From the sequence record SRR31156797_511: DNA of 53,083 nucleotides; one strand, 5' to 3'. Below are positions 11,430-23,519 of this stretch, in pieces (the first letter of the stretch is position 1; every line of letters begins with the position of its first letter). The notes below the pieces were generated by a model. That model saw nothing but the letters and a program-made list of their open reading frames with translations. It searched no databases and was not told where the DNA came from. Position numbers and translations under genes: made by a program.

Positions 11430-11467
11430 AAAAAGGGGTTGGTGAGAATGCTCACCAACCCCTTTCT
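11430..11467. terminator. Bidirectional terminator closing the phage-derived cluster
   Basis: AAAGGGGTTGGTGAG-AATG-CTCACCAACCCCTTT perfect 15-bp stem. Confidence 0.85.
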
Positions 11468-11473
11468 TATTTT

Positions 11474-11698
11474 TTATTGCAAAATTTCACTAACCACGCT
11501 CCGGCCCAACACGGACTCAAAAACATGCCTGTAATCATCAGGTGAAGCCGAACCATCCTTGCAAACCCGGCTAAAAGCAACCCGAGTCTTCGGGCTCATC
11601 TGGCCGATATCAAAATCTTCATGACTACGCTTTGCCGGAATTTCGCGATGGATGGAAACACCGGGCTGTTCTTCAACTTTATGTATCATTTCAGACAT
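11474..11698 (-). CDS. Small protein coupled to the tail fibre (possible chaperone)
   Basis: ATG overlaps the fibre stop (TAATG); ends just before the terminator. Confidence 0.6.
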   Translation of the reverse strand: MSEMIHKVEEQPGVSIHREIPAKRSHEDFDIGQMSPKTRVAFSRVCKDGSASPDDYRHVFESVLGRSVVSEILQ

Positions 11699-13920
11699 TA
11701 GGGTTTCTCCTTAATATAGATCTTACCACTTTTAAAAGTAACCACATCCCCACTCACAGCCATAGCAAGCCGTTTAAGAGCCGGGTTATCCTCCAGCGCA
11801 ATTTCCTTCCCGGTAATTTTGAGGTCATCGCCATCAATCGAACAGGTGTAACTTGCCGGGGGCAGTGTGCAGCGATTAGGGATAGCAACCACTGTCTCCG
11901 CAGTAGGAGCACTCGCAAGGACGGTTTTCAGAATTATGGTAGCAGTATAAGTACCGTCCCCGTTATCCACCTCACTAACTGACTCAATTTCAACTAACTG
12001 ACCATCCACCAGCAGATGCTTGTGCAAGCCGCCAGCCATAAGAATCTGGTCTTTGATGGAGTCATTGCTTACTATTTCTATAGAGGTTGTAGTAGACGTA
12101 ACAGAACCAGCATCAAGGACTTCAATTGTGCCAAACATCCTATCTGTAACACTTCTAAAAGAGCGGATAAAATTAAATTTAAGTTCATCAAAAGTCTGCA
12201 TTTCGGAAAAGTCAAAAGAGCGCTTTTCACCATAGGTCCATGAACTGGTTAGTAATCTTGAATCGACTTTAACCCAATCATTTCCGGACCTTCTAACGAA
12301 GACCTCCCACTCCTTGGGATTCAAATCAGCCCCGGTTGAAGTGGAATCCCATGCTTGAAAACTGTAGCCCGCTGCCGTCTGGGTGGAGCCATATGCAATT
12401 GTCAGTTCGCACAAACCTGACTCAGTCCAGCGCACTGCAGAATCAACACTTCTCCTCCCAACGTACCAAACTGGTCCTGCTGGAGCAGATTCGACTGGAG
12501 TAAGGTTTGACGTGATTGTACAACCATTAGTAGTTTCTCCGGTCATTTCAGGGATAAGGTTCGCCCCGCCTCCAGTCCTTTTCTGTTGCAATTTTTTTTC
12601 CTGCCCAAGATACTCACCCTCAACTCCAGCACCGACCTTAATCGCAACATCTGATTTTTTAATCGCCTTTGTAGGAACTCCGGGCAGAGCCTGAACGAGA
12701 GTTGCGGAATACTCCCCACTACCGGCATCAACAATGCTGCTAATCTTCGCCTCACCCTGATCCGTAACAACCGAACCTGTATAGTTTTCATTGACTTTCA
12801 AAACGCTTGCGCTTGTACCGTCCAGAAGAGCCAATTTTCCGCTAATCTGTACAATTTCCGCCGTAGCGGAAACAATCTGATTTATATTATCTGCAGCAAC
12901 GGAATATGCAGGAATATGAACTCCGTCCGCATCTACGGTTGCACCGGGATAACCAACAATGGAATCGGCAAAGACCATGGTCGATCCGTCCTGGACAGAA
13001 ATATGTTTTACCAGCAACTGATGCTTAGCTGTCTCAGAATAGAACTCTCCCCGTCGTCTTCTAATCACATCAAGACTTTTAGTCACATCGATAAATGTAG
13101 GCTCAAGAACCCAGCTAATAGTATTTCCGGAAATTGAAGCAGAACCGAATCCGAAGGTATTAATTTCATACGAAGTGACCCCATCTTCGGAATGATCAGT
13201 GATTACAATTGAAACGGTTGTACCTTCCGGGGCCTCAGCTGGTGCGGAAAGAATTGGGGTAGAACTGCGTAACGGGCTTAAATCACCCACAGCAATTTTT
13301 ATGGCTGAATCCCTTGCTTCCTCAGCTGCTGACTGGGCCAGCAAAGCCTTATCGCAGGCAGCCTCTGAACTGGTTTGTGCCGCTTGCGCATCAACTAGCA
13401 TCCCCCGGGCATTCCCTTCGGCATCAATAGCACCACTGCGAGCGGAAACGGCTTCGTCCCTTGCATTGGAAATAGTCTGTACCATTTCGTGTGGTGTAAG
13501 GCGCTCTTCGACTGGTGTTGAAATGTCATATTTCAAAGCCCGATCAACCTGTTCCTGCAGCTGCTGGTCACGCATTACCCCGCGATCAAAAGCTTCATTC
13601 AAAAGCTGCGCAGAAAAAGGATCATTATCCACCAATTCAAGTTCCTGCGTATAGACTATTTCCCGGTAAAGGGTAATCCTTTGTCCCGTGGAAAGAGGTT
13701 CTCCGCTAATTGGATGCTGAACCCGTCCCCCTGAGTCACTCCCAACACCGGAAATGATCTTGAAATCACTGCCCAAGACTAAACGCTCTTCCTTGCCCTC
13801 GCTATTGCGCAAAACTGCGCAAAGATCCTCAGCCTTGAAAATACGGAAATTAAAATCAAAAAAAGTCTGAACACCGTCCCCAGCAAAAGTGATAGTGTTC
13901 CCACTTGAAACCACAGTCAT
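11698..13920 (-). CDS. Phage tail fibre / receptor-binding protein
   Basis: T7 gp17-like N-terminus (GDGVQTFFDFNF...ITLYR...LNEAFDR..M..QQL), Ala-rich coiled coil, discoidin-like module; AGGAG RBS. Confidence 0.85.
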   Translation of the reverse strand: MTVVSSGNTITFAGDGVQTFFDFNFRIFKAEDLCAVLRNSEGKEERLVLGSDFKIISGVGSDSGGRVQHPISGEPLSTGQRITLYREIVYTQELELVDNDPFSAQLLNEAFDRGVMRDQQLQEQVDRALKYDISTPVEERLTPHEMVQTISNARDEAVSARSGAIDAEGNARGMLVDAQAAQTSSEAACDKALLAQSAAEEARDSAIKIAVGDLSPLRSSTPILSAPAEAPEGTTVSIVITDHSEDGVTSYEINTFGFGSASISGNTISWVLEPTFIDVTKSLDVIRRRRGEFYSETAKHQLLVKHISVQDGSTMVFADSIVGYPGATVDADGVHIPAYSVAADNINQIVSATAEIVQISGKLALLDGTSASVLKVNENYTGSVVTDQGEAKISSIVDAGSGEYSATLVQALPGVPTKAIKKSDVAIKVGAGVEGEYLGQEKKLQQKRTGGGANLIPEMTGETTNGCTITSNLTPVESAPAGPVWYVGRRSVDSAVRWTESGLCELTIAYGSTQTAAGYSFQAWDSTSTGADLNPKEWEVFVRRSGNDWVKVDSRLLTSSWTYGEKRSFDFSEMQTFDELKFNFIRSFRSVTDRMFGTIEVLDAGSVTSTTTSIEIVSNDSIKDQILMAGGLHKHLLVDGQLVEIESVSEVDNGDGTYTATIILKTVLASAPTAETVVAIPNRCTLPPASYTCSIDGDDLKITGKEIALEDNPALKRLAMAVSGDVVTFKSGKIYIKEKP

Positions 13921-13987
13921 AATCTACTCCTATTAACGTTACTAACTCATTTAAATACCAACCTTATATTTGTATTTTAAAAAGAAA

Positions 13988-14019
13988 GACGGACCTGAGT
14001 AACCCAACTCAGGTCCGTC
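13988..14019 (-). repeat. GGACCTGAGT hairpin copy 1 (terminator-like on minus strand)
   Basis: GACGGACCTGAGT-AACCCA-ACTCAGGTCCGTC perfect 13-bp stem; T tract follows on the minus strand. Confidence 0.85.
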
Positions 14020-14045
14020 CTCTAAAACAATTATGCGGAAAAAAA

Positions 14046-14882
14046 TCATCCGCCTATCTTTGAACTCAACAGACTCCCGGCCATACTCATTCCCTGATTC
14101 AAGAATCCACTGTTCGCTGCTGAATCGCTTTTGTTTGTCTCCTCCTGTGTAACATTATAATTCAACACCGACTTGCTGTGTGCAGACCAAACCGACAAAT
14201 CACCCTTCTCAATCATCCTGTTGGAATTAACCTCCGCCTGATACTTTACAATCTCTGCATCGTATGCGGCCTGCCGGATGGTATCTTCACGTACATCAAC
14301 AACTGAACCGGAATTAAGACGCACCCCCTTATACCCGGAAATAGAATGGTTACGGCGATACAGTTCACGGCGCAGAGTCGCCAGCTTGATTTCAGCATCC
14401 TGCTTGATAAGCTGAGCTTCTTTGTAACTAACGCTACGGTTATACACCCCCTGCTGCATAAGATGATAATTGTTCACCTCGGTCATCTGAGAATTGTACT
14501 GAACCTCACTACGCGCCTGACTTCCACTTATTATAGACTGTCCAAACTGAGTCATCATACCCAAATAGCTGTTTCCGCCGCCTCCGCCAAGCAAGCTGCC
14601 GCCTGCCCCGGTAGATGCTCCTGAGGTTGCACCTCCTGAACCGGAGACACTCCCCGTGCTGATCATGCTGGAAAGCCCCTGTCCCGTTAAACCGCTTAGG
14701 CTCCCACCGGACACACCGGACAGACCACCGCCACCAAAAACACCGCTCAAAGCATCTGAGCCAACATTGCTCCATGAAGAACCCTGCCCTGAAATCCCCC
14801 GAGTAACGGCTCCCGATGCCATACTGCTTGCAGCCCCTACAAGCATTTGTGAGCCATAATTATAAATAACTCCCATTGCCAT
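14046..14882 (-). CDS. Putative small internal virion/ejection protein (T7 gp14-like) with Gly/Ser-rich N-terminus
   Basis: Position after gp13-like gene; coiled coil followed by GVRLNSGS..DV..DT motif; GGAGGT RBS. Confidence 0.6.
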   Translation of the reverse strand: MAMGVIYNYGSQMLVGAASSMASGAVTRGISGQGSSWSNVGSDALSGVFGGGGLSGVSGGSLSGLTGQGLSSMISTGSVSGSGGATSGASTGAGGSLLGGGGGNSYLGMMTQFGQSIISGSQARSEVQYNSQMTEVNNYHLMQQGVYNRSVSYKEAQLIKQDAEIKLATLRRELYRRNHSISGYKGVRLNSGSVVDVREDTIRQAAYDAEIVKYQAEVNSNRMIEKGDLSVWSAHSKSVLNYNVTQEETNKSDSAANSGFLNQGMSMAGSLLSSKIGG

Positions 14883-14883
14883 A

Positions 14884-15381
14884 TTAACTCACCTCCATCT
14901 TACTTCTTCCTAATCTGCGCTGAGCATGGAAATATTCATCTCTGCCCAAACGAATTTTTTCCTTTTCAAATTCAAAACCACACCACTTGTGCCAGAACAC
15001 ACTTTTGCTATTCTGCACGCATACCCATGTATCGAGCAGCGGAAAGCTACGTTGCAGCATATCCAAGAACCTCCGGGACGCCCTTGCAAATGGCAGGGGA
15101 GTCTCGTCCACTGCAACACTGCCCACAACCCAAGGGGTTCCTACTCCTGGAGCGAGAGGTACAACCCCGAAAATTCCATGGATAAAACCATCACGATATA
15201 ACCCGTAAACCAGCTTTGAACACGCCACATCGCCCATGATAATCTCGCACATGGATTTTCCGGGATACAACCCTTCCATATCCCTATAGTCACTTTCACG
15301 GATGTTAACGGCAATATTATTCACCTCTTCCAACGTAGGAATGCCCAGTTTTAAGGATGTCCCGCTTCTCACCCTGCTCAC
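14884..15381 (-). CDS. Phage GNAT-like protein (T7 gp13-like)
   Basis: IRESDYRDM, GIFGV...GVGTPW, V...N..S..W.KWCGF pattern; overlaps the nozzle stop. Confidence 0.75.
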   Translation of the reverse strand: MSRVRSGTSLKLGIPTLEEVNNIAVNIRESDYRDMEGLYPGKSMCEIIMGDVACSKLVYGLYRDGFIHGIFGVVPLAPGVGTPWVVGSVAVDETPLPFARASRRFLDMLQRSFPLLDTWVCVQNSKSVFWHKWCGFEFEKEKIRLGRDEYFHAQRRLGRSKMEVS

Positions 15382-17474
15382 GAATACACCGAAACTTCCG
15401 GTATCAAGGCCAATACAGAAAGCGGCAAAGGCTGGTCCTGCCGGATATAAATCTGCCCATCACGATCATAACCGCGATTGAACTTGACCTCGTAATCTCC
15501 AGTGAACAGAGCAGGAGCACCGCCGACCTTATCCGCCGAAGTACGAAACGGAGCACGCTCTAAGTGTTCCCCGTCATACCCAACCTGCAATCCAAGCGAC
15601 TGAAATAAACGCACAATAACATGAGAGATACGTTTCTTGCGACCCTGAGCAGTGCCGCCGGACATGGCTCCGCCCTCAATACGCAGGGTCTTCATATTGG
15701 AAACATAGGGAAGTCCGGCATGAACGACCTTGGCAGGGGCAGCCAAGGTGATACCCCCATCTTTGACCACAACATCAGGACGAACAGCCCCATCAGCTAA
15801 CACGGAAACATTTTTCCCCTCCAGATGTTCAAGTCCGCTGAAAACGGTATCCGCTACCCCTTGATCGTAAGTCAGCCCCGAATCCACAAAGAAGGCATCA
15901 ACCGAACCTTCACCGACAAACTGATTCTCCATGCGCTCAACATATTTACGGACAATGCCACCGACTTCCCGTTCAACAACCACCCAGACTTCATCTTGCG
16001 TGGGGCCGGGGATGGTGCATACGGAACGAAATTTACCGTCAGTGGAATGGCGATGAAATCCGACCACCTCATGTTCGCGCTGGTAAGTCAGGCCGATCAT
16101 AGTCCCGTCATCACGGATCATCCAGATTACGGAATCCGGCGACTGCTGGTATGCCCACTCAGTGATAGAATTGGAACGGGTCAGGTGTTCAGCAAGGATG
16201 GTCAGATCAGGAGCTACGTAGCCATCAGCCTCAAAGGAATAGGAAAGTTCCCGGATGGTTCGCCTTTCACGCTGCAAAAAAATCATCACTCCGCCCACAA
16301 TCACCGGAGGTATTGCCGCAGAACCGTGGGTGGTTTCACGGCGGACCATAACCGAGTTGGGTGTTACAGCATCTGCACGACTGCCCCCGGAAAGCCACCA
16401 TTCCCCGCCGGAAGTCCCCATGATCAATTTCTTGGAACTGACCATCCAGCGAATGGCATTCACCTGATCAGCAGAGAGGGTATAGGTACAGGAGTCGTCA
16501 TCCACCACAGGAGTAGAAACACCGAAATCCTCGTACGAACCGGCTTTACTCATCCAGATAGTCTGAGGATTGAAGGGACTGGCAGCAAAGCAAAGACGCT
16601 CCTCAAAGAAAGTTACACAGGAAGGAAATCCCTTGTCGCTGCTCCACTCCTCCGGCGGGGAACTGAATTCGACAAGTTCCATCTTCCAATCAACATGGGA
16701 TGTACGTGAAAGCTTGTAAGGTTGCACCTCCGGATGGACCAGATACATCACGTCCGCAGACTGGGTAAAACGGATTCCCGGCAGATCCTTTTCAGTATAG
16801 GGAGTCACTATTTCTACGGGAGCACCCTGATCATCCACCACGATTCCACCATTTTTGTAGATTCGAATATTGCGGTCAGTGAATTCCAAGACATAGGCCT
16901 GTTCGGTGGAAAATTCAAAAGGGATCAGCCGGGTCGCGGGATTAATTTTCCGAACCCGAACTTCCTCAACAGCTCCTGCGAAATCTGCATCAGCAATAAT
17001 GGAAAACAATCCGTCAGCATCCGCCTTGGACCGGAAAGCATAACTTCCGTCAGCGGCAACAAATTCACTCATGCTGTCGCTTCCGGCACTGACACAAACA
17101 GCACCAGCCTGATATTCACTGACCTTAAAGCTGATCTCATAGACAAGGTCCGCAATTAATTTCAAATCCCTGCTGAGTATTGATTTAGCTGTCTGGGTTC
17201 CATCACAAGCAGCTTTGGCAGAAGCCACGGCCCAACCGCTACCTACGGTCCAGCCTGTTGCTGAATCAAGGCTTGTGGGGAGAAGCTGATTACGGCCCGT
17301 AACTTCACGGATGAAGCGGAATCCGGTTCGCCGGGAAGCCCCGCCATGGGGATGGGTAAACATATTTTCAAGCTCGGCAAGCCCGTTGGCATACTTGGCA
17401 AGATCCACCCTGCCGCCCAGCCGGGGTGAAAGTTCCCCGGCACTAAAATTAGTCATAATAAGGGAAACAGACAT
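15378..17474 (-). CDS. Tail nozzle / tail tubular protein B (T7 gp12-like)
   Basis: TNFSAGELSPRL.GRVDL..Y, GG..RR.G, P..V.F.EERL.FA and GLEHLEG..V...ADG motifs; start at ATG 17474. Confidence 0.88.
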   Translation of the reverse strand: MSVSLIMTNFSAGELSPRLGGRVDLAKYANGLAELENMFTHPHGGASRRTGFRFIREVTGRNQLLPTSLDSATGWTVGSGWAVASAKAACDGTQTAKSILSRDLKLIADLVYEISFKVSEYQAGAVCVSAGSDSMSEFVAADGSYAFRSKADADGLFSIIADADFAGAVEEVRVRKINPATRLIPFEFSTEQAYVLEFTDRNIRIYKNGGIVVDDQGAPVEIVTPYTEKDLPGIRFTQSADVMYLVHPEVQPYKLSRTSHVDWKMELVEFSSPPEEWSSDKGFPSCVTFFEERLCFAASPFNPQTIWMSKAGSYEDFGVSTPVVDDDSCTYTLSADQVNAIRWMVSSKKLIMGTSGGEWWLSGGSRADAVTPNSVMVRRETTHGSAAIPPVIVGGVMIFLQRERRTIRELSYSFEADGYVAPDLTILAEHLTRSNSITEWAYQQSPDSVIWMIRDDGTMIGLTYQREHEVVGFHRHSTDGKFRSVCTIPGPTQDEVWVVVEREVGGIVRKYVERMENQFVGEGSVDAFFVDSGLTYDQGVADTVFSGLEHLEGKNVSVLADGAVRPDVVVKDGGITLAAPAKVVHAGLPYVSNMKTLRIEGGAMSGGTAQGRKKRISHVIVRLFQSLGLQVGYDGEHLERAPFRTSADKVGGAPALFTGDYEVKFNRGYDRDGQIYIRQDQPLPLSVLALIPEVSVYS

Positions 17475-17476
17475 GC

Positions 17477-18070
17477 TTACGCCCTCCAGACCGGGGAATC
17501 TATACCGTGAATTCCCCTTGCTTCCAGCCACGGATCTTTGGGAATGTTATCCTCCCTTCCTTCAGCTGAATCCGCTAATCGTGCAGATTGCATGGCATTG
17601 AGATATAATGTCCACATTTCACGGGCTTTGGTGGTGGAACCAGTGATGTCGTCAGCCATTTCCGCAGCCAACCTAGCTGCAAAAGCCATCACGAACGATG
17701 GATCGAAAAGGACCGGATTGGTCATCTTGATGGTATAAACAGCGAAAGCTCCGTCACGATCAGTGAGGATTTTATCACCTTCGACAACAAACTCATCATC
17801 CGAAGAATTGAGCTGCCTAAGATGCAGACAGTCTGAGGGGAGCTGATACTGGTGTGCAAAACCGAAAGCAGGATTATCAGCAAGTTTAGCCAATCTCGTG
17901 CGTGAAGCCGCAAAATTCCATGGATGCTCACGAAGGACCGCATCACGGACCTGATCATAAAAAAGATTACAGGTAACAGCCTCTTGCGACCTGTCACTTA
18001 AGGATTCAATGAGTCTCGCTCCAAGTTTTCGTAAGGCGAGGTTACAGATTTTGACCTCTGAAACAGCCAT
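17477..18070 (-). CDS. Tail adaptor / tail tubular protein A (T7 gp11-like)
   Basis: ICNLAL..LG, RDAVLREHPWNFA, YQLP.D.L and F..A.AARLA motifs; AGGAGA RBS before ATG 18070. Confidence 0.88.
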   Translation of the reverse strand: MAVSEVKICNLALRKLGARLIESLSDRSQEAVTCNLFYDQVRDAVLREHPWNFAASRTRLAKLADNPAFGFAHQYQLPSDCLHLRQLNSSDDEFVVEGDKILTDRDGAFAVYTIKMTNPVLFDPSFVMAFAARLAAEMADDITGSTTKAREMWTLYLNAMQSARLADSAEGREDNIPKDPWLEARGIHGIDSPVWRA

Positions 18071-18140
18071 ATTTTCTCCTGATATGTTTAGGAGATACAA
18101 TTCATTTCGTTCTCCTTTTCATAGTCAGGATAAAAATAAA

Positions 18141-18172
18141 GGCGGACCTGAGTAACCCAACTCAAGTCCGCC
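18141..18172 (-). repeat. GGACCTGAGT hairpin copy 2 (terminator-like on minus strand)
   Basis: GGCGGACCTGAGT-AACCCA-ACTCAAGTCCGCC; the single mismatch is a G-U pair on the minus strand; T tract follows. Confidence 0.85.
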
Positions 18173-18211
18173 TCAAACAACTGTTTTTGATTCTGATACT
18201 TTTACGGCAGC

Positions 18212-20530
18212 CTATTTTTCATAAACAGGAAGCCGGATCACAAAAAGGGTACCCTTATCAAGGTCGGAAGAAACCTCCATAGCCCCTTTGTGACGATTGG
18301 TAATAATGAAATATGAAATAGAAAGCCCTAGCCCGGTCCCCTTACCTACTGATTTCGTAGTATAAAAAGGTTCCATAATCCGATTACGGACTTCTTCATC
18401 CATGCCGGAACCATTATCTTCTATCTCCAGCACAGCCATGGATCCGCTTTGATAAACCCGGAGCACAAAGCATGGTCCATTCTCAGAATAAATTTTATCA
18501 CCCATGGCTTCCGCACCATTTTTCAATAAATTCAACACAACCTGCTGAATCTCGGTCCTGTCACACTCAACCTGGACATCTTCATCTATAAATTTTTTAA
18601 CTATTTTAATTCTCTTGAAATCATAATTCCGCTTGTAATCATAATCTTTCATAATCAAACTTAACGCACTATCCACTATCGAACACAAATAGTGCGGGGC
18701 AAAATCACTACCACTTTTGCGGCTAAAGCTAAGCATACCACGTACTATTGTCGAAGCTCTTATTCCCGCTTCATAAATGCCATCCAAAAATTTCAGACAC
18801 TCCCTTCGCTCGAGATATTCAGTAATTGCAGAAAATGGCACCCCACACTCTTGCGCAACCTTAATATTCTTCTTCGTTTCAAGGGCCAGACGTCTTTGCA
18901 AATTCTGCACAGACCCTACTATGGCAGCCAAAGGATTATTAATTTCATGCGCCATTCCGGCAGCAAGACCACCGACGGACATCATCTTCTCAGACTGAAT
19001 CATACGTTGCTCATTAATCTTTCTTTCAGTCATATCTACCACAGACCCTTCAAAAATAGCTTTCCCATTTTGATCAGTCACCTTCCGGGCATTCATTGTA
19101 ATCCAGACTATATCACCATCCTTGCGTTTCATTTTCACTTCAAAACCTGAAAGAGTTCCTTTTTCCCGCATTGCTATAAGTAAAATATTACGATCTTCTC
19201 CATTCAGGTAAAGCTTCTTCCCCACGCGATCCAGTACTTGAATAACTTCTTCAGGAGAATCATATCCAAATATTGCGGCAAAAGCAGCGTTAGCCGCCAA
19301 CACTCTGCCTTCTACACTGGTCTGAAAAATACCCTCTTGAGCATTATCGAATATGGAACGGTACTTAAGCTCCGAATGCCCAAGGTCTTTACGGGCTTTA
19401 CGCAGAGCCATAACATTTTTAACCAGAACAATTACCAGAAGAATCATCACAAAAAAAACGAAAACAGTGCTCCAGACAAGATAAAAATATTCTTCATAGA
19501 ATGAGAAAGGTTCATTAATGACAACGCTATCTTCGGGGAGTGACTCGATACGAATTCCGTATTTATCAAGCGCCTGCCAATCAAAAATAAAAGCATTGGC
19601 TCCAATCTTAACAACCGGAATATCATCGGCTCTTTCCCCCGCAAGCACCTTACGGGCGACTTCACTCATCATCACGCCCTGATGATAACCGCTGATCACC
19701 TTACCGCCGACAACACCGTCACGAAGATTGAAACGCAGCAGACAATAAACCGGAACAGGACTGTTTTTCGTGAGCATACTGCCCAACTTCTCATATGTTA
19801 CATATTTACCATCCCGATCCGAATAATAAACACCGAGCAGTACAACGCTTCCCGGCTTCATGGAGTTAATCTTGTCCCGTAATCCGGCAATGGTAAGATT
19901 ATCATTATATTCAATCCGGACTTGATCTTTAAAGGGCGCAAGATTCCGTTTAATCGTAGCTTCCCAAGCCCGACCAGTTTTAAGATAGTCATTAACCACA
20001 TATATGGATTTTGTTTCCGGTAATTGATTAAGGATGTTCTCCACGGTCTCACGCGAAGACATTACTTCCGCCACCCCGGTAATTTTTTTTACCCCTGTGA
20101 GTTGATCATCTGAAAAGTTATTCACCCCGCAAAAAACGACCGGAACACCGGGAAAAAGCTCATCACGATTTTTCAGCAGAAACTCAAAAGCATTATTATC
20201 GGAAGACAAGACTAAAGACAGATTGATATTTCTGAATTTTGCCTCAAGCAGTTTTTTAATTCTCGCATAATGCTCGGGAGAATGATGCCGCTTAGTGTCC
20301 ATATATTCGATATGAAGAACAAGATCTTTATAAGGCGGGACCAGCAAAGTCTCACGAATTCCCTTCTCAATATTCGTAACCCACGACATGCCGGAATGAT
20401 AAGAATGCAGCACCAGCACATGCCGCACTTCCTCAGCACGAACTGGTAAAGACAAAAAAAGAAAAACAACTACAAGCCCGCATAGCCGCAGAAATTTTCC
20501 TAATTGTTTTTTACATGCTCCTTTCACCAT
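18212..20530 (-). CDS. Membrane sensor histidine kinase (periplasmic SBP-like sensor, PAS, HisKA, HATPase)
   Basis: VLVLHSYH sensor start, TM helix, YRSIFDNA PAS, AGMAHEINNPL, PFYTTK..GKGTGLGL. Confidence 0.92.
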   Translation of the reverse strand: MVKGACKKQLGKFLRLCGLVVVFLFLSLPVRAEEVRHVLVLHSYHSGMSWVTNIEKGIRETLLVPPYKDLVLHIEYMDTKRHHSPEHYARIKKLLEAKFRNINLSLVLSSDNNAFEFLLKNRDELFPGVPVVFCGVNNFSDDQLTGVKKITGVAEVMSSRETVENILNQLPETKSIYVVNDYLKTGRAWEATIKRNLAPFKDQVRIEYNDNLTIAGLRDKINSMKPGSVVLLGVYYSDRDGKYVTYEKLGSMLTKNSPVPVYCLLRFNLRDGVVGGKVISGYHQGVMMSEVARKVLAGERADDIPVVKIGANAFIFDWQALDKYGIRIESLPEDSVVINEPFSFYEEYFYLVWSTVFVFFVMILLVIVLVKNVMALRKARKDLGHSELKYRSIFDNAQEGIFQTSVEGRVLAANAAFAAIFGYDSPEEVIQVLDRVGKKLYLNGEDRNILLIAMREKGTLSGFEVKMKRKDGDIVWITMNARKVTDQNGKAIFEGSVVDMTERKINEQRMIQSEKMMSVGGLAAGMAHEINNPLAAIVGSVQNLQRRLALETKKNIKVAQECGVPFSAITEYLERRECLKFLDGIYEAGIRASTIVRGMLSFSRKSGSDFAPHYLCSIVDSALSLIMKDYDYKRNYDFKRIKIVKKFIDEDVQVECDRTEIQQVVLNLLKNGAEAMGDKIYSENGPCFVLRVYQSGSMAVLEIEDNGSGMDEEVRNRIMEPFYTTKSVGKGTGLGLSISYFIITNRHKGAMEVSSDLDKGTLFVIRLPVYEK

Positions 20531-20592
20531 AAACTATAACTAGCATAACTTGCAGACCAAATCTATGTCAGTATTTGATAATAAAACAAATT

Positions 20593-20618
20593 ACCCCCGG
20601 TCCAAATGGACCGGGGGT
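20593..20618. terminator. Terminator closing the head-gene block
   Basis: ACCCCCGGTCCA-AA-TGGACCGGGGGT with A-rich left and T-rich right flanks. Confidence 0.75.
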
Positions 20619-20674
20619 TTTCACCGTAGAGTAATGAAAGATTCCTCAAATTAAGAAAGAATAGAACTTAATAT

Positions 20675-20872
20675 CTACTTATCCGCCATCTCCTTCTTCT
20701 TGCCACGAACAGCCTTTTTCCCGACAGGCTTGGGTTTGATGCCATCAACAGCTTCAAAATGCTCCGCAACTTCAGCTCCATCAGCATACTCAACGCTCAT
20801 TCCAGCCTTGAAATGCTGCAATTTACCCTGCGGATTCCTCACGTAACAATCCTTCTTGCAAACGAATTTCAC
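20675..20872 (-). CDS. Small phage head-region protein
   Basis: GTG start 13 nt after the cement gene; Lys-rich tail; typical post-capsid position. Confidence 0.65.
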   Translation of the reverse strand: MKFVCKKDCYVRNPQGKLQHFKAGMSVEYADGAEVAEHFEAVDGIKPKPVGKKAVRGKKKEMADK

Positions 20873-20885
20873 TTACCCACCAACC

Positions 20886-21278
20886 TTAAATATTGGTCTG
20901 ATCATCCATGATCAGATAGCCGCTGATTTTACCAGAAGTGGCGTTGCTTCCGGTCACAGTAAAGGAAAGCCTCAGAAAGCCCTTGTGAACCACGGGTAGG
21001 GAGGGCAGCGGAAAGCTGTAGCCCTGCTTAAGTTCTGCCACTGGGATGGAGCCGGATTCGAAAAGGGTATCAAAGAGAGAAAAAACCTCAGCCCCGGAAG
21101 CCTGAACACCGACACGCAGACTGGTCAGGGTTGCAAAATCTTCGCCGTCGACCATAACCTTGAGCCTGACATTGCCGCCGGAACCGCAATCCTCACCAAC
21201 GTTAATCACATTCTGGGAAACCGCACTTGCAGTAACAGCCTGTTCCTCACAAAAACAAAGTTCTTTATCAAGATACAT
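20886..21278 (-). CDS. Capsid cement/decoration protein (BPP-1 Bbp16-like)
   Basis: MYLDKEL.F...QAVTASA.S.NVI...; IPVAELK.GY; FLRL.FTV.G..AT.GKI pattern; directly after capsid. Confidence 0.82.
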   Translation of the reverse strand: MYLDKELCFCEEQAVTASAVSQNVINVGEDCGSGGNVRLKVMVDGEDFATLTSLRVGVQASGAEVFSLFDTLFESGSIPVAELKQGYSFPLPSLPVVHKGFLRLSFTVTGSNATSGKISGYLIMDDQTNI

Positions 21279-21296
21279 ATTCTTTTCTCCTTTTAA

Positions 21297-22265
21297 TTAC
21301 GCAGTAATCGCAGCTTCGGTATTAAGAATGGAATCCACGCGACGGACCGGGCTGCCCCAAAAGGTAGTTACGGGCTTGCCTTCCCAGTTCTCGGTCTTGA
21401 GCATAACGTTATTTTTGTCAGACGCTTCAATGTCGAGCAGGGTTTTCACCGTCTGGTTGCAGTAGATAGCAGTTCTGCCCATGTTGGTGTTGGGGATCAT
21501 GTTCAGACCTTCAATCAATGCATGACGCAAAGAATTGGAACCGATGTTCTCAGGATCAATGGATGCAATACGCACCACGTAACGCCAGTCACGTACAACA
21601 AGACCGGGAGTCCATTTGTAATGAGTACGCAGCCCCTGAAACTTGCCGCCGTTGGTATCTTCGAGCGTAACTTCACCGAGGTCCTTATGGCTCAAACCGT
21701 TGGAACTGCCTTTAGGAAAAGTAAAATGCACGGTCTGATCCGACCAGCACACAATCCATATAGATGTGCAATTGTTGCCGGTGCCACCGAAGTTAATGAG
21801 GTTCTTGTCATCAAGAGAATTGAAGCGTGGTGCGAGACCGAGAAATTTCTCAGGTTCCAGCGCGGTATCACCGTAAACAAAAGTATCGGCAAATTCCTTG
21901 TTCATCGCTTCAAGGAATGCACGCTCCTCGGAAGTACGAAAATTGGAGGAATGGCCGTTGAGATCAGAAAGAGCCTTGTCCATTTCCGCATAGGATTCGA
22001 GCATGCCGCAAGTATCATCGATCTGCTTGGTGCGGGACTTACTGGGCTTGATACCGTAGTTGAGCTTACGCCAGCTCACGGTAGGCAGGTCAGTACGCAC
22101 GGTGGTACGGTGTCCGGTGGGCAGGTTACCCTCAACCCATGCGGCGTCATCAAGGATTTCGTTAGTATGGGCCAGAACTTCGGTGATCTCGGCGACTTTG
22201 CCGTTAGGATCAAGGCGTCCGCCCCAATCGGAAAGGGTAAGTGCGTTCATACCAAGAGTTGCCAT
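21297..22265 (-). CDS. Major capsid protein (BPP-1 Bbp17-like)
   Basis: NEILDD..W.EGN..TGH...VRT.LP, F.YGD...PE.F.GLAPRF, GLVVRDWRYVVRIA.ID, G.PVRRVD.ILNTEA; AAGGAG RBS. Confidence 0.92.
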   Translation of the reverse strand: MATLGMNALTLSDWGGRLDPNGKVAEITEVLAHTNEILDDAAWVEGNLPTGHRTTVRTDLPTVSWRKLNYGIKPSKSRTKQIDDTCGMLESYAEMDKALSDLNGHSSNFRTSEERAFLEAMNKEFADTFVYGDTALEPEKFLGLAPRFNSLDDKNLINFGGTGNNCTSIWIVCWSDQTVHFTFPKGSSNGLSHKDLGEVTLEDTNGGKFQGLRTHYKWTPGLVVRDWRYVVRIASIDPENIGSNSLRHALIEGLNMIPNTNMGRTAIYCNQTVKTLLDIEASDKNNVMLKTENWEGKPVTTFWGSPVRRVDSILNTEAAITA

Positions 22266-22359
22266 AATTAATTCTCCTTGTAGAGATTCGGCCCTCTTGG
22301 GAGCTCTTAATTATATGACGCTTCAAGCGTTCTAAAAATTGATGCGCTACGCGCTATGA

Positions 22360-22998
22360 TTAAATCGGCTGGTTTGGATAGAGAATTTCCCCGATTGTCT
22401 TCTTACGGGGAGTATTCCTATTGCTATCCACATATGAATCTTCAGTAAGACGCCTGCCGACATTGTAAAAGGCTCTAACCACTTCAGGATGACAGGAATA
22501 TCCAGACTCCCTGATCATTTTTGCAAGGACCGGGGAAGCGAAAGCCTGCAATGCCTTGTTGGCTACCCCCATATTCTTGCGGTAATTGTTGCCGTGCCAA
22601 CCGGGAAGTGCACGAGTCTGGCGCTCCCATTCCCCGGTCTGGGTCTGGTAATCCTGATGACGGGCCGCTTCAAGGGAGTTGTGGAAATCCACAAGCTTCT
22701 GGGCCATTTCCCCACTGACCCCGTTCTCGTGGGCAAACTGCCGGAACTGGCGGTCCACATGTGGATCAATCCCGTCCGGCATGCCATAATCCAATTCATA
22801 CGCATCCGGCGCATTGGGAACCGGAATATCGGTCAACAGTTCGGCTTCCTCGATTGCAGGACTGCCCTGCTCTTCGGAAACGTCATCTTCCAGCAAGGCG
22901 TCGCCACCGAGCACGGGTTCTGCCACCTCATCCTTCATCTTAGCCTGCGGAGAGTAATGATCCGGCTGAGGATCATCACTAACCGGGAAATCCATCAT
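22360..22998 (-). CDS. Capsid assembly scaffolding protein
   Basis: Acidic N-terminus, PDAYEL, AQKLVD, G...HPEVVR.F..VG...ED, terminal LYP; immediately upstream of capsid. Confidence 0.8.
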   Translation of the reverse strand: MMDFPVSDDPQPDHYSPQAKMKDEVAEPVLGGDALLEDDVSEEQGSPAIEEAELLTDIPVPNAPDAYELDYGMPDGIDPHVDRQFRQFAHENGVSGEMAQKLVDFHNSLEAARHQDYQTQTGEWERQTRALPGWHGNNYRKNMGVANKALQAFASPVLAKMIRESGYSCHPEVVRAFYNVGRRLTEDSYVDSNRNTPRKKTIGEILYPNQPI

Positions 22999-23330
22999 TT
23001 TCGTTCCTCCTCTTCTTTTCTTATTTGTTCAGCCCGCTCACGGATGATAGAAAGATAAATTTCCTCATCAGCGGTGATAACCGGGCCAAGTACATTTTCA
23101 ACCACAAAATCATGGACGCCCACGTTGCGGTAGATATCAGTATCTTTGGCGAATAAAACCGCATTCACTCCGCCCTGCTCCAGCAGAAAAGTAAATACCC
23201 TCTTACCGTGCGGAGTCTTGAATGTAGCCCTCACGTCGGACAAAAACTGTTCGTTGATCCTGCGCTGCTCCTCACGAACATTTTCAGCTTCGCGCAGTTC
23301 ATCCTCCAGAAAACCGGAGTCCGTTGTCAT
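22995..23330 (-). CDS. Phage head-region protein (Bbp19-like, normally between portal and scaffold)
   Basis: D....F.TP.GKRV...LL...G motif; AGGAGG RBS before ATG 23330; ATGA overlap with scaffold. Confidence 0.72.
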   Translation of the reverse strand: MTTDSGFLEDELREAENVREEQRRINEQFLSDVRATFKTPHGKRVFTFLLEQGGVNAVLFAKDTDIYRNVGVHDFVVENVLGPVITADEEIYLSIIRERAEQIRKEEEERK

Positions 23331-23472
23331 TAAATCCTGCCTCCTTGCTAAAAGTCTAAAACATTTTTCCGAAGGAGATGCGGCGTGTGAAGCATACCTA
23401 TATTTACGAATCAACGAATTATGCGAACGTTCAGTAACCTCATCCGCCCCCTTCGAAATACATAATATGCAG

Positions 23473-23519
23473 CAGGGCGGACCTGAGTCAGATGACTCGG
23501 GTCCGCCCTGTGCTTTTTT
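23473..23519 (+). repeat. GGACCTGAGT hairpin copy 3 (T tract on plus strand)
   Basis: CAGGGCGGACCTGAGTCA-GA-TGACTCGGGTCCGCCCTG then TGCTTTTTT. Confidence 0.8.

Follow-up and report, generated by a model that had tools for sequence, protein, structure and literature searches.

Between positions 11474 and 23330 of sequence record SRR31156797_511, a stretch of 53,083 nucleotides (nt) that was analysed whole and is called the window here, the minus strand encodes the head and tail of a short-tailed phage. These genes are probably part of a domesticated podophage of the epsilon15/BPP-1 type that is vertically inherited by Maridesulfovibrio and kept under selection. Our best reading is that of a domesticated, apparently co-regulated, multi-locus DNA-packaging particle, gene transfer agent (GTA)-like and possibly toxin-injecting, and we consider it a strong candidate for a new virus-like particle owned by the host, for instance a GTA. 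Across the genus, an intact and nearly complete gene set has become fixed, is under selection and bears a shared motif: terminase (TerL), portal, scaffold, capsid, cement, adaptor, nozzle, three internal/ejection proteins, fibre and holin. Of at least six chromosomal loci that make up this system, two lie in the window; all statements on loci outside it rest on the genomes of relatives.

A preliminary description of the window had listed eleven minus-strand open reading frames (ORFs) in podophage order and treated them as a single cluster. All eleven are open frames, and they are arranged like p08 to p17 of phage phiV10, with the fibre coming next. The description overlooked a host-type gene that lies among them, a sensor histidine kinase between small65 and the adaptor gene. 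The region reads as follows, in the direction of transcription:

22995..23330, minus strand: Bbp19-like small head protein, 111 amino acids (aa) (phrog_528, E 3e-9; weak PF25181)
22360..22998, minus strand: scaffold/protease-like protein (phrog_458, E 9e-31)
21297..22265, minus strand: major capsid protein, epsilon15 GP7 family (PF20911, E 3e-125)
20886..21278, minus strand: cement/decoration protein, Bbp16 family (PF21190, E 1e-14)
20675..20872, minus strand: small65, a small ORF after the cement gene, no family match
18212..20530, minus strand: sensor histidine kinase, 772 aa, not a phage gene
17477..18100, minus strand: adaptor (gatekeeper, tail tubular protein A type; phrog_394, E 5e-56)
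15378..17531, minus strand: nozzle, tail tubular protein B type (phrog_376, E 9e-213; Pfam Phage_nozzle)
14884..15381, minus strand: ivp165, internal virion protein in gp13-like position (phrog_308, E 5e-20; aligns to phiV10 p16)
14046..14882, minus strand: ivp278, internal virion protein in gp14-like position (phrog_418, E 4e-5)
11698..13920, minus strand: tail fibre, 740 aa (residues 1-130 match tail-fibre PHROGs, E 2e-20; T7-type N-terminal attachment domain)
11474..11698, minus strand: small74, a 74-aa ORF coupled to the fibre gene by a one-base stop/start overlap

Because the kinase separates the head genes from the tail genes, the virion genes form two blocks and not one run: a head module (Bbp19-like protein, scaffold, capsid, cement, small65) and a tail module (adaptor, nozzle, two internal proteins, fibre, small74). 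The GP7-family capsid, Bbp16 cement protein, Bbp19, adaptor, nozzle and T7-type portal stand in the order of an epsilon15/BPP-1-type virion module, and the capsid is 50-55% identical to phage capsids. Matches from 20 phiV10 proteins (structural, terminase, holin, endolysin, integrase) were all confined to 11477-23264, as were those from the ORF set of a 60-kb region around a related prophage. The phiV10 integrase in particular had no match outside this interval; a whole-window integrase/replication profile scan was not made. As the preliminary description had stated, no tRNA, terminase or portal gene is recognisable here: the window contained no tRNA, and the TerL, portal, holin, gp15-like and Rhs-like proteins of relatives had no homologue in it.

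The cluster end that had been proposed at 23330 also holds. The Bbp19-like gene starts there with an ATG preceded by an AAGGAGG ribosome-binding site, and its product is 49% identical to a 106-aa homologue in the prophage of genome G003. A 186-aa frame reaching up to 23555 was rejected as the real gene, given the same ATG and ribosome-binding site and an extension that is not conserved in relatives. The nozzle gene probably begins near 17474-17486, with phiV10 residue 1 aligning at 17474.

To follow the element through the genus we used a sample of 26 Maridesulfovibrio species genomes. The capsid gene was present in 26/26 (identity 76-97%) and intact in 25, and the nozzle gene likewise in 26/26 (identity 68-91%). 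Portal and TerL were each found in 25/26 genomes, with G218 the sole miss for both; this is probably an assembly gap, because the locus runs off the end of a contig. Adaptor identity was 72-95% across 14 relatives. The smaller genes diverge further: small65 is 34-74% identical in relatives, and small74, which has no Pfam or PHROG match, is 49-93% identical and open in 11/11 loci where it was found. In the fibre, just the first ~190-430 residues can be aligned; its open frames range from 344 to 1393 aa and the C-terminal parts are swapped among species, a pattern expected for a receptor-binding protein under diversifying exchange.

A search with the nozzle returned 10 loci in genomes labelled Maridesulfovibrio or Desulfovibrio (77-91% identity) plus one distant locus in Planctomycetota. 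In 10/10 of the former, the tail module adjoins the same aminotransferase, hydrolase, methyltransferase and CBS genes, and in 7/10 the head module lies inside the 10-kb flank. Element genes were open in every locus examined, apart from a split capsid gene in G209. Stops inside some nozzle matches were considered as gene breaks and rejected, their positions corresponding to N-terminal over-extensions of the queries or to the adaptor stop.

Some of these loci show peculiarities of their own. In G209 (L045/L046, C1:1540000-1579999) a ~25-kb insertion splits the capsid gene and ~15 codons are present on both sides, which looks like a mobile element integrated into the gene. The nozzles of G004 and G005 (L008, L009) have a common in-frame deletion of ~residues 80-200, leaving a 599-aa open frame. 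The locus on a Planctomycetota chromosome (L011) encodes scaffold, capsid, adaptor, nozzle and internal protein in the same order, with identities of 36% (nozzle), 32% (capsid) and 35% (adaptor).

Ratios of nonsynonymous to synonymous substitution rates (dN/dS) were calculated pairwise after Nei-Gojobori (NG86) for pairs with dS <1.5 (median dS ~1) and are given as medians. They were lowest for the adaptor (0.02), capsid (0.03), TerL (0.03; 3 pairs) and portal (0.04; 2 pairs), followed by nozzle (0.06), cement (0.06) and scaffold (0.08). The internal proteins ivp278 (0.11) and ivp165 (0.20), small65 (0.15) and small74 (0.31) had higher values, and the flanking host genes spanned 0.03-0.23. The core parts, at 0.02-0.08, are as low as the host flanking genes and are under the purifying selection expected of a GTA.

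We then compared a tree of four concatenated host flank proteins with one of five concatenated element proteins, for the nine taxa whose fetched loci contained every gene; G002-G005, G218 and G209 lacked the full gene set and were left out. The two trees agree except in the placement of G220 (support 72 vs 97), and the branches of the element tree are shorter than those of the host tree. With 26/26 genomes, 10/10 syntenic flanks and congruent trees, the virion genes are of phage origin, fixed in the host chromosome and inherited vertically across species, as those of GTAs are. The idea of domestication put forward in the preliminary description is thereby supported: the cluster is not strain-specific, occupies the same locus across the genus, follows the host tree but for G220, evolves at dN/dS far below 1, and is not pseudogenised in relatives (25/26 capsid genes intact).

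The same description had seen in the window a clean loss of whole genes and had proposed a search for orphan portal and terminase genes. That search succeeded, and the loss was only apparent: genes for portal, terminase, lysis and a gp15-like protein persist at other loci, so that the window contains just a part of the system. By profile search, five complete relatives each proved to have a single intact T7-type portal (PF12236), at distances from the capsid gene of 1.1 Mb in G001 and G005, 276 kb in G004 and 9-20 kb in G003 and G002. The portal belongs to a separate packaging-lysis locus, shared with TerL and holin and conserved in 25/26 genomes, which begins with a palindrome and continues with a 68-aa ORF, the holin, a 91-aa ORF, a 74-aa zinc-finger-like ORF (CxxC...CxxC), a 98-aa ORF that overlaps TerL, TerL itself (matching phrog_38), two small ORFs, the portal and a 228-aa protein. 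The holin matches PF11351, "Holin of 3TMs, for gene-transfer release" (E 2.4e-28), and is kept in 7/7 packaging loci. The 228-aa protein (MLVLTD...; L025:7788-8474, minus strand) is always encoded after the portal; its structural model (predicted local distance difference test, pLDDT, 85) resembles the tandem OB-fold DNA binders RPA70, HIN-200, POT1 and LEF-3 (E from 3e-4, template-modelling (TM) score 0.2-0.4).

The dispersal of the modules differs between species. In G197, G013, G126, G205, G206, G081, G220, G158, G217 and G003 all modules lie on one strand, in phage order, within ~20-35 kb; in these contiguous species a host insert (Na/H antiporter, TetR, HlyD, ABC-2) separates the portal from the head genes, and in G197 and G220 head and tail modules are contiguous. 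This one-strand arrangement looks like the ancestral layout, since scattered in the clade of the window. No integrase was found within ~100 kb of the element in G001, G013, G220 and G003, and G197 has a Xer-like integrase 10 kb away. No genes for replication or integration turned up next to the loci examined, which were not scanned with replication profiles.

A complete prophage of the same lineage provided a reference. It lies in G003 (L030-L032, C1:3645000-3704999), is contiguous, has integrase hits nearby and encodes TerL, portal, Bbp19, scaffold, capsid, cement, nozzle, internal protein, a 535-aa and a 2153-aa protein, fibre and a small74 homologue, the two large proteins standing between the internal proteins and the fibre. 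The element is 40-66% identical to this only complete related prophage found, far from the near identity that the preliminary description had named as refuting. The ORF after the prophage fibre is 58% identical to small74; the domesticated TerL is 73% identical to that of the prophage, the portal just 44%. A functional prophage is a contiguous genome with integrase, regulation, replication, lysis and a full ejection set. The element is not of this kind, and the G003 prophage shows what is missing.

The modules share a sequence motif. A terminator scan of the window surfaced three look-alike hairpins, each upstream of a virion gene:

23472..23511 (core 23479-23504), minus strand: palindromic element of the head module, ~140 nt upstream of the Bbp19-like start
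18139..18174 (core 18144-18169), minus strand: palindromic element of the adaptor, ~40 nt upstream of its start
13985..14022 (core 13991-14016), minus strand: palindromic element of the fibre, ~65 nt upstream of its start

The core, GGACCTGAGT-N6-ACTCAGGTCC, has 3 copies in the 53-kb window vs 0 expected. In relatives the palindrome occurs at the same places and also immediately ahead of the 68-aa ORF, ~1 kb upstream of TerL, so that a 26-bp palindrome followed at a fixed distance by TAnnnT stands upstream of the head, adaptor, fibre and packaging modules. A total of 36 instances align without gaps. GGAC and GTCC are invariant among them, and eleven bases past GGTCC the T and A of TAnnnT are invariant and its third fixed letter, a T, nearly so. 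The outer stem covaries (G-C in 20 and C-G in 10 instances at one pair), exceeding 500/500 shuffles and all slid controls. Genomes of the genus carry 2-12 copies each (26/26), and the reversed pattern occurs 0 times. The motif is absent from the G003 prophage, phiV10 and the other-family clusters, and Rfam has no family at the palindromes. We read TAnnnT as a putative -10 hexamer, in which case the palindrome would overlap the -35 region as an operator or activator site; the copy at 23472..23511 is proposed as the head-module promoter/operator.

Extra copies of the motif, examined at 19 sites in five genomes, mostly lead to two gene families, one gp15-like (U) and one Rhs-like (R). At 10/19 of these sites TA..T stands at the fixed offset and at 4 more TA only, against a background chance of 0.012 per position. 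One copy (L062, G001:C1:2395300-2403300) stands before a 101-aa ORF, a 397-aa protein with a weak GMT-like winged helix-turn-helix (wHTH) match and a DUF5131 protein. An integrase hit follows at ~2 kb, and the site may represent a further mobile island or harbour a regulator.

Family U consists of proteins of 470-530 aa, is confined to Maridesulfovibrio-group records (30 clusters) and has exactly one copy in each of the 26/26 genus genomes. The palindrome lies 70-140 nt upstream of the U gene in 13/13 genomes for which both coordinates were listed. The structural model of U is all-helical (pLDDT 83) and matches 37 podovirus proteins at E up to 1e-3, including "internal virion protein C" and lysin-bearing ejection proteins. 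Its best PDB matches are T7 core proteins, the periplasmic tunnel of the T7 ejectosome and a cyanophage pre-ejectosome; their probabilities reach 0.99, and they are weak by E (0.01-0.4) and TM (<=0.30), with E 0.012-0.02 and TM 0.28-0.30 for the T7 core proteins. At the sequence level there are weak profile links to phiV10 p18; the U profile found nothing significant among PDB sequences, and hhalign gave no match between U and the 535-aa protein of the prophage. We take U as a putative gp15-type core/ejection protein relocated from the tail module. Of the gp15 and gp16 genes that the preliminary description had suggested looking for, a candidate for the former is thus present in 26/26 genomes, and no gp16-like protein was found with the two large prophage proteins as queries.

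Family R comprises Rhs/YD-shell proteins (Pfam TEN_YD-shell and RHS_repeat; PDB matches to Rhs and teneurin shells, E down to 1e-58). It was found in 25/26 genus genomes, in 1-10 copies and with the same upstream palindrome; G197 has the element and no Rhs N-domain hit. The N-terminal domain is restricted to Maridesulfovibrio-group records (16 clusters). An Rhs core-end motif is followed by unrelated C-terminal tails, often with a small ORF downstream. Shell, core-end motif, variable C-terminus and downstream small ORF are the features of the Rhs/YD polymorphic toxin family, to which we assign R by sequence. Syntenic copies in G001, G004 and G005 end right after the core motif, without a toxin tail. 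In G003, G158, G206, G217 and L005 an R copy lies inside the element, between head and tail modules and on the same strand, and orphan Rhs C-terminal fragments stand beside the embedded copy in L005 and L006 (= G003). No sequence link was found between R and virion proteins, and hhalign comparisons with the fibre, ivp278 and the 2153-aa prophage protein were null. A protein atlas search with the Rhs N-terminus was uninformative (best score 0.83).

The kinase in the window has a periplasmic substrate-binding-like domain, PAS, HisKA and HATPase (Pfam). Its guanine-plus-cytosine (GC) content is 0.41-0.42 vs 0.49-0.53 in the structural genes. It occupies the same site in 4/10 related loci, with a 39-aa remnant in a fifth, and in other species this position is taken by an Rhs-like gene. 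The kinase is intact, 71-83% identical in four relatives, and has a dN/dS of 0.085. Ordinary host genes flank the element in the window (DUF3089, aminotransferase, a GGDEF protein and an acyl-CoA synthetase-like protein). A hairpin at 11430-11467, with a 17-bp stem and T runs on both strands, separates the convergent genes small74 and DUF3089 and looks like a bidirectional terminator closing the tail operon. A second hairpin follows the head module:

20593..20618, minus strand: terminator-like hairpin after the head module (consensus scan only)

Promoter- and terminator-like signals as such were no commoner in the window than in shuffled sequence (sigma-70 scan 19 vs 18.3; terminator scan 18 vs 13.5).

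How such a particle would work can be sketched from these parts. The motif would be a common promoter/operator through which a single signal from the host would activate every locus in part of the population. Procapsids would assemble on the portal and TerL would fill the heads with DNA, a step whose importance can be argued from the strong conservation of TerL and portal. Host DNA is the likely cargo, because no replication or integration genes were found beside the examined loci and the loci are up to 1.1 Mb apart in several species. Adaptor, nozzle and fibres would complete a short tail, and holin-mediated lysis would set the particles free. At a target cell, a conduit spanning the envelope would be formed by the internal proteins together with the gp15-like protein, and Rhs-like proteins may travel as ejected cargo in place of the missing gp16-like protein. 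We rank gene transfer of the GTA type as the most likely pay-off and toxin delivery next, either as the main alternative or in addition; the Rhs-like genes suggest such a second or alternative role, either as injected core-protein toxins or as toxins merely released by co-induced lysis. A stronger version is tentative and rather doubtful to us. It would make the loci one regulon for a DNA-filled short-tailed particle in which the gp16-type protein has been swapped for exchangeable Rhs toxins, so that host DNA is injected along with a kin-discriminating toxin, and would count the related Desulfovibrionaceae clusters, the genes of the transfer particle Dd1 included, as the same device.

Several observations weigh against reading the element as a domesticated, GTA-like particle. 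It is known here from genes alone, and for the packaging, gp15-like and Rhs-like loci the evidence comes from relatives, not from the strain of the window. No ORF was recognised as a small terminase; those of 98 aa and 91 aa upstream of TerL match no family, and neither do the 74-aa and 68-aa ORFs of the packaging module in relatives. Neither an endolysin nor the regulator was recognised, although the 74-aa zinc-finger-like ORF, the tandem-OB protein and the wHTH protein near one motif site may be considered as candidates for the latter. A gp16-like protein was not found in five genomes queried with the 2153-aa and 535-aa prophage proteins. The selection estimates rest on few pairs for portal (2) and TerL (3), with dS near saturation, and one species (G209) has its capsid gene split by the 25-kb insertion. 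As for the motif, the strict TA..T test holds at just 10/19 extra sites, and T runs follow two of the three window palindromes, so that a terminator or repeat element is possible instead of an operator.

That last point opens a rival account of the motif, under which the palindromes would be mere intrinsic terminators or a repeat family, the link to the gp15-like and Rhs-like genes coincidental, and a common regulon absent. A GC-rich stem with compensatory changes, the T runs and the 5/19 extra sites that lack even TA at the fixed offset would all suit it. We nevertheless hold it to be improbable: TAnnnT keeps its spacing without an indel in 36 instances around an invariant GGAC/GTCC core, in a position where its background chance is 0.012, and a 4-Mb genome has just 2-12 copies of the motif, invariably placed in front of, and pointing to, members of the same gene families, including 70-140 nt before the gp15-like gene in 13/13 genomes. 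Least credible is that the cluster is an inert remnant, a decaying cryptic prophage fragment with no current function. The host gene inserted mid-cluster, the split capsid gene of one species and the lack of integrase, replication and lysis genes in the window (where integrase and replication profiles were not run over the whole length) would fit decay. This account is already contradicted by frames that are open in all loci examined except that one capsid gene, despite dS ~1, by the core dN/dS of 0.02-0.08, by presence in 26/26 species and by partner modules kept at other loci with a common motif. Only slightly better placed, and very improbable in our view, is a parts store in which the structural genes are kept for a satellite or for a resident or infecting phage, or as a defence decoy. 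Related complete prophages do circulate in the genus (G003), and the TerL and portal identities to that prophage (73% vs 44%) hint at exchange; however, a complete, apparently co-regulated set occurs in every species, with or without a related prophage, second portal or capsid copies are found in only few genomes, and the prophage lacks the motif.

The alternative that most deserves attention, although we consider it unlikely as the main role, is a killer particle that serves interbacterial competition. DNA-filled heads would then just pressurise ejection, and Rhs-type core proteins with variable, toxin-like C-terminal ends, each with a small immunity-like ORF downstream, would be injected into non-kin, making the device a capsid-bearing analogue of tailocins. 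Much of what is described above for family R speaks for it: the shared upstream palindrome, the same-strand copies embedded in the element in G003, G158, G206, G217 and L005 with orphan C-terminal fragments in L005 and L006, an N-terminal domain confined to the Maridesulfovibrio group and present in 25/26 genus genomes, and the core motif with unrelated tails on a shell that matches Rhs and teneurin structures. The missing gp16-like protein and the hypervariable fibre C-termini point the same way. Yet the Rhs-like proteins resemble no virion protein, the syntenic copies in G001, G004 and G005 lack a toxin tail, and G197 keeps the element without an Rhs N-domain hit. Co-induced lysis could simply release Rhs proteins, and the strong conservation of TerL fits a DNA cargo.

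Beyond Maridesulfovibrio, a T7-type portal was found in 132/201 Desulfovibrionaceae genomes sampled vs 0/14 controls, and a GP7 capsid in 60; outside Maridesulfovibrio, genomes with both genes have them side by side. At a syntenic site in G073 and G121, a compact cluster runs from TerL through portal, scaffold, capsid, adaptor, fibre and nozzle to an internal protein, and no large ejection proteins were detected in it. The capsids of this type have relatives under a D. piger label (88%) and, in one metagenome-assembled genome, under a D. desulfuricans label (69%). A late-activator-like gene (phrog_836) lies near the compact clusters of the family (L047-L057: G073, G121, G107, G187).

To our knowledge, genetically distinct types of GTA are few, and sulfate reducers have yielded no genetically defined one. 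The present data provide a concrete gene set for a podovirus-type host-owned particle (head, tail, packaging, holin, gp15-like) in an environmentally important genus, together with a candidate control motif that retrieves further members of the system. The old question of which genes stand behind Desulfovibrio-type transfer particles becomes approachable by knock-out and proteomics. Genomes that range from one contiguous locus to modules 1.1 Mb apart document the dismantling of a prophage whose parts stay apparently co-regulated. That the motif is shared with Rhs toxin-like genes, of which some lie within the element, points to a coupling of a capsid particle with polymorphic toxins that has not been described before and, if confirmed, would make the element more than a variant of known GTA-like systems.

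In 1987 Rapp and Wall reportedly described Dd1 of Desulfovibrio desulfuricans, a small tailed particle that transfers host DNA and comes from the same bacterial family as Maridesulfovibrio. The compact cluster of other Desulfovibrionaceae, from TerL to the internal protein, is related to the Maridesulfovibrio element and distinct from it, and is at most a possible source of Dd1. Reviews, in the portions available to us, describe Dd1 as characterised only cursorily, and the accessible part of a 2024 review mentions a putative Dd1 small terminase (PMC11841831), so candidate Dd1 genes may already be in the literature. Within the partial texts that our literature searches returned, nothing dealt with the Maridesulfovibrio element or with Rhs proteins tied to a podophage-derived particle, and there was no direct precedent on Dd1 genes, Maridesulfovibrio prophages or Rhs with ejection proteins; the supplement of PMC6006170 may list Desulfovibrio prophage regions.

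By its gene content the element appears to carry the genomic hallmarks of a GTA: it is fixed, vertically inherited, selected, spread over several loci, without an adjacent integrase and equipped with a GTA-family holin. RcGTA of Rhodobacter capsulatus is siphovirus-like. With it and other alphaproteobacterial GTAs the element shares host-fixed, vertically inherited phage-derived genes at several loci, the PF11351 holin and purifying selection, and, as in RcGTA, no integrase or replication genes were found beside the loci examined. It differs from RcGTA in being epsilon15/BPP-1-type and podovirus-like (GP7 capsid, PF12236 portal), from an unrelated lineage, and in its control motif, which in Maridesulfovibrio is also carried by Rhs-like genes. 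A parallel in description is FpGTA of Faecalibacterium prausnitzii, reported in 2026 as a GTA-like element, probably podovirus-like, with two operons, and called, in the part of the report accessible to us, the first podovirus-like GTA-like element, for which packaged-DNA evidence exists (PMC12946183). Given this precedent, a podovirus-type GTA morphology class is not new. FpGTA belongs to another phylum and is likened here by description; in contrast to both RcGTA and FpGTA, the Maridesulfovibrio element is known only through its genes.

Among phages, the element is closest to epsilon15, phiV10 and BPP-1 (temperate podophages, Uetakevirus and relatives), with which it shares head and tail gene order, gene families and a capsid identity of 50-55%. 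Unlike them, it has no small terminase of a known family and no giant ejection proteins of the p18-p20 type, its modules are dispersed and interrupted by host genes, and no endolysin, integrase, repressor or replication genes lie beside it, replication profiles not having been searched. Tailocins and extracellular contractile injection systems are likewise host-owned, phage-derived killing devices released by lysis, and some contractile injection systems load Rhs or other toxins. They derive from long-tailed phages, however, and have no capsids, portals or terminases, whereas Maridesulfovibrio keeps head, portal and TerL under strong selection.

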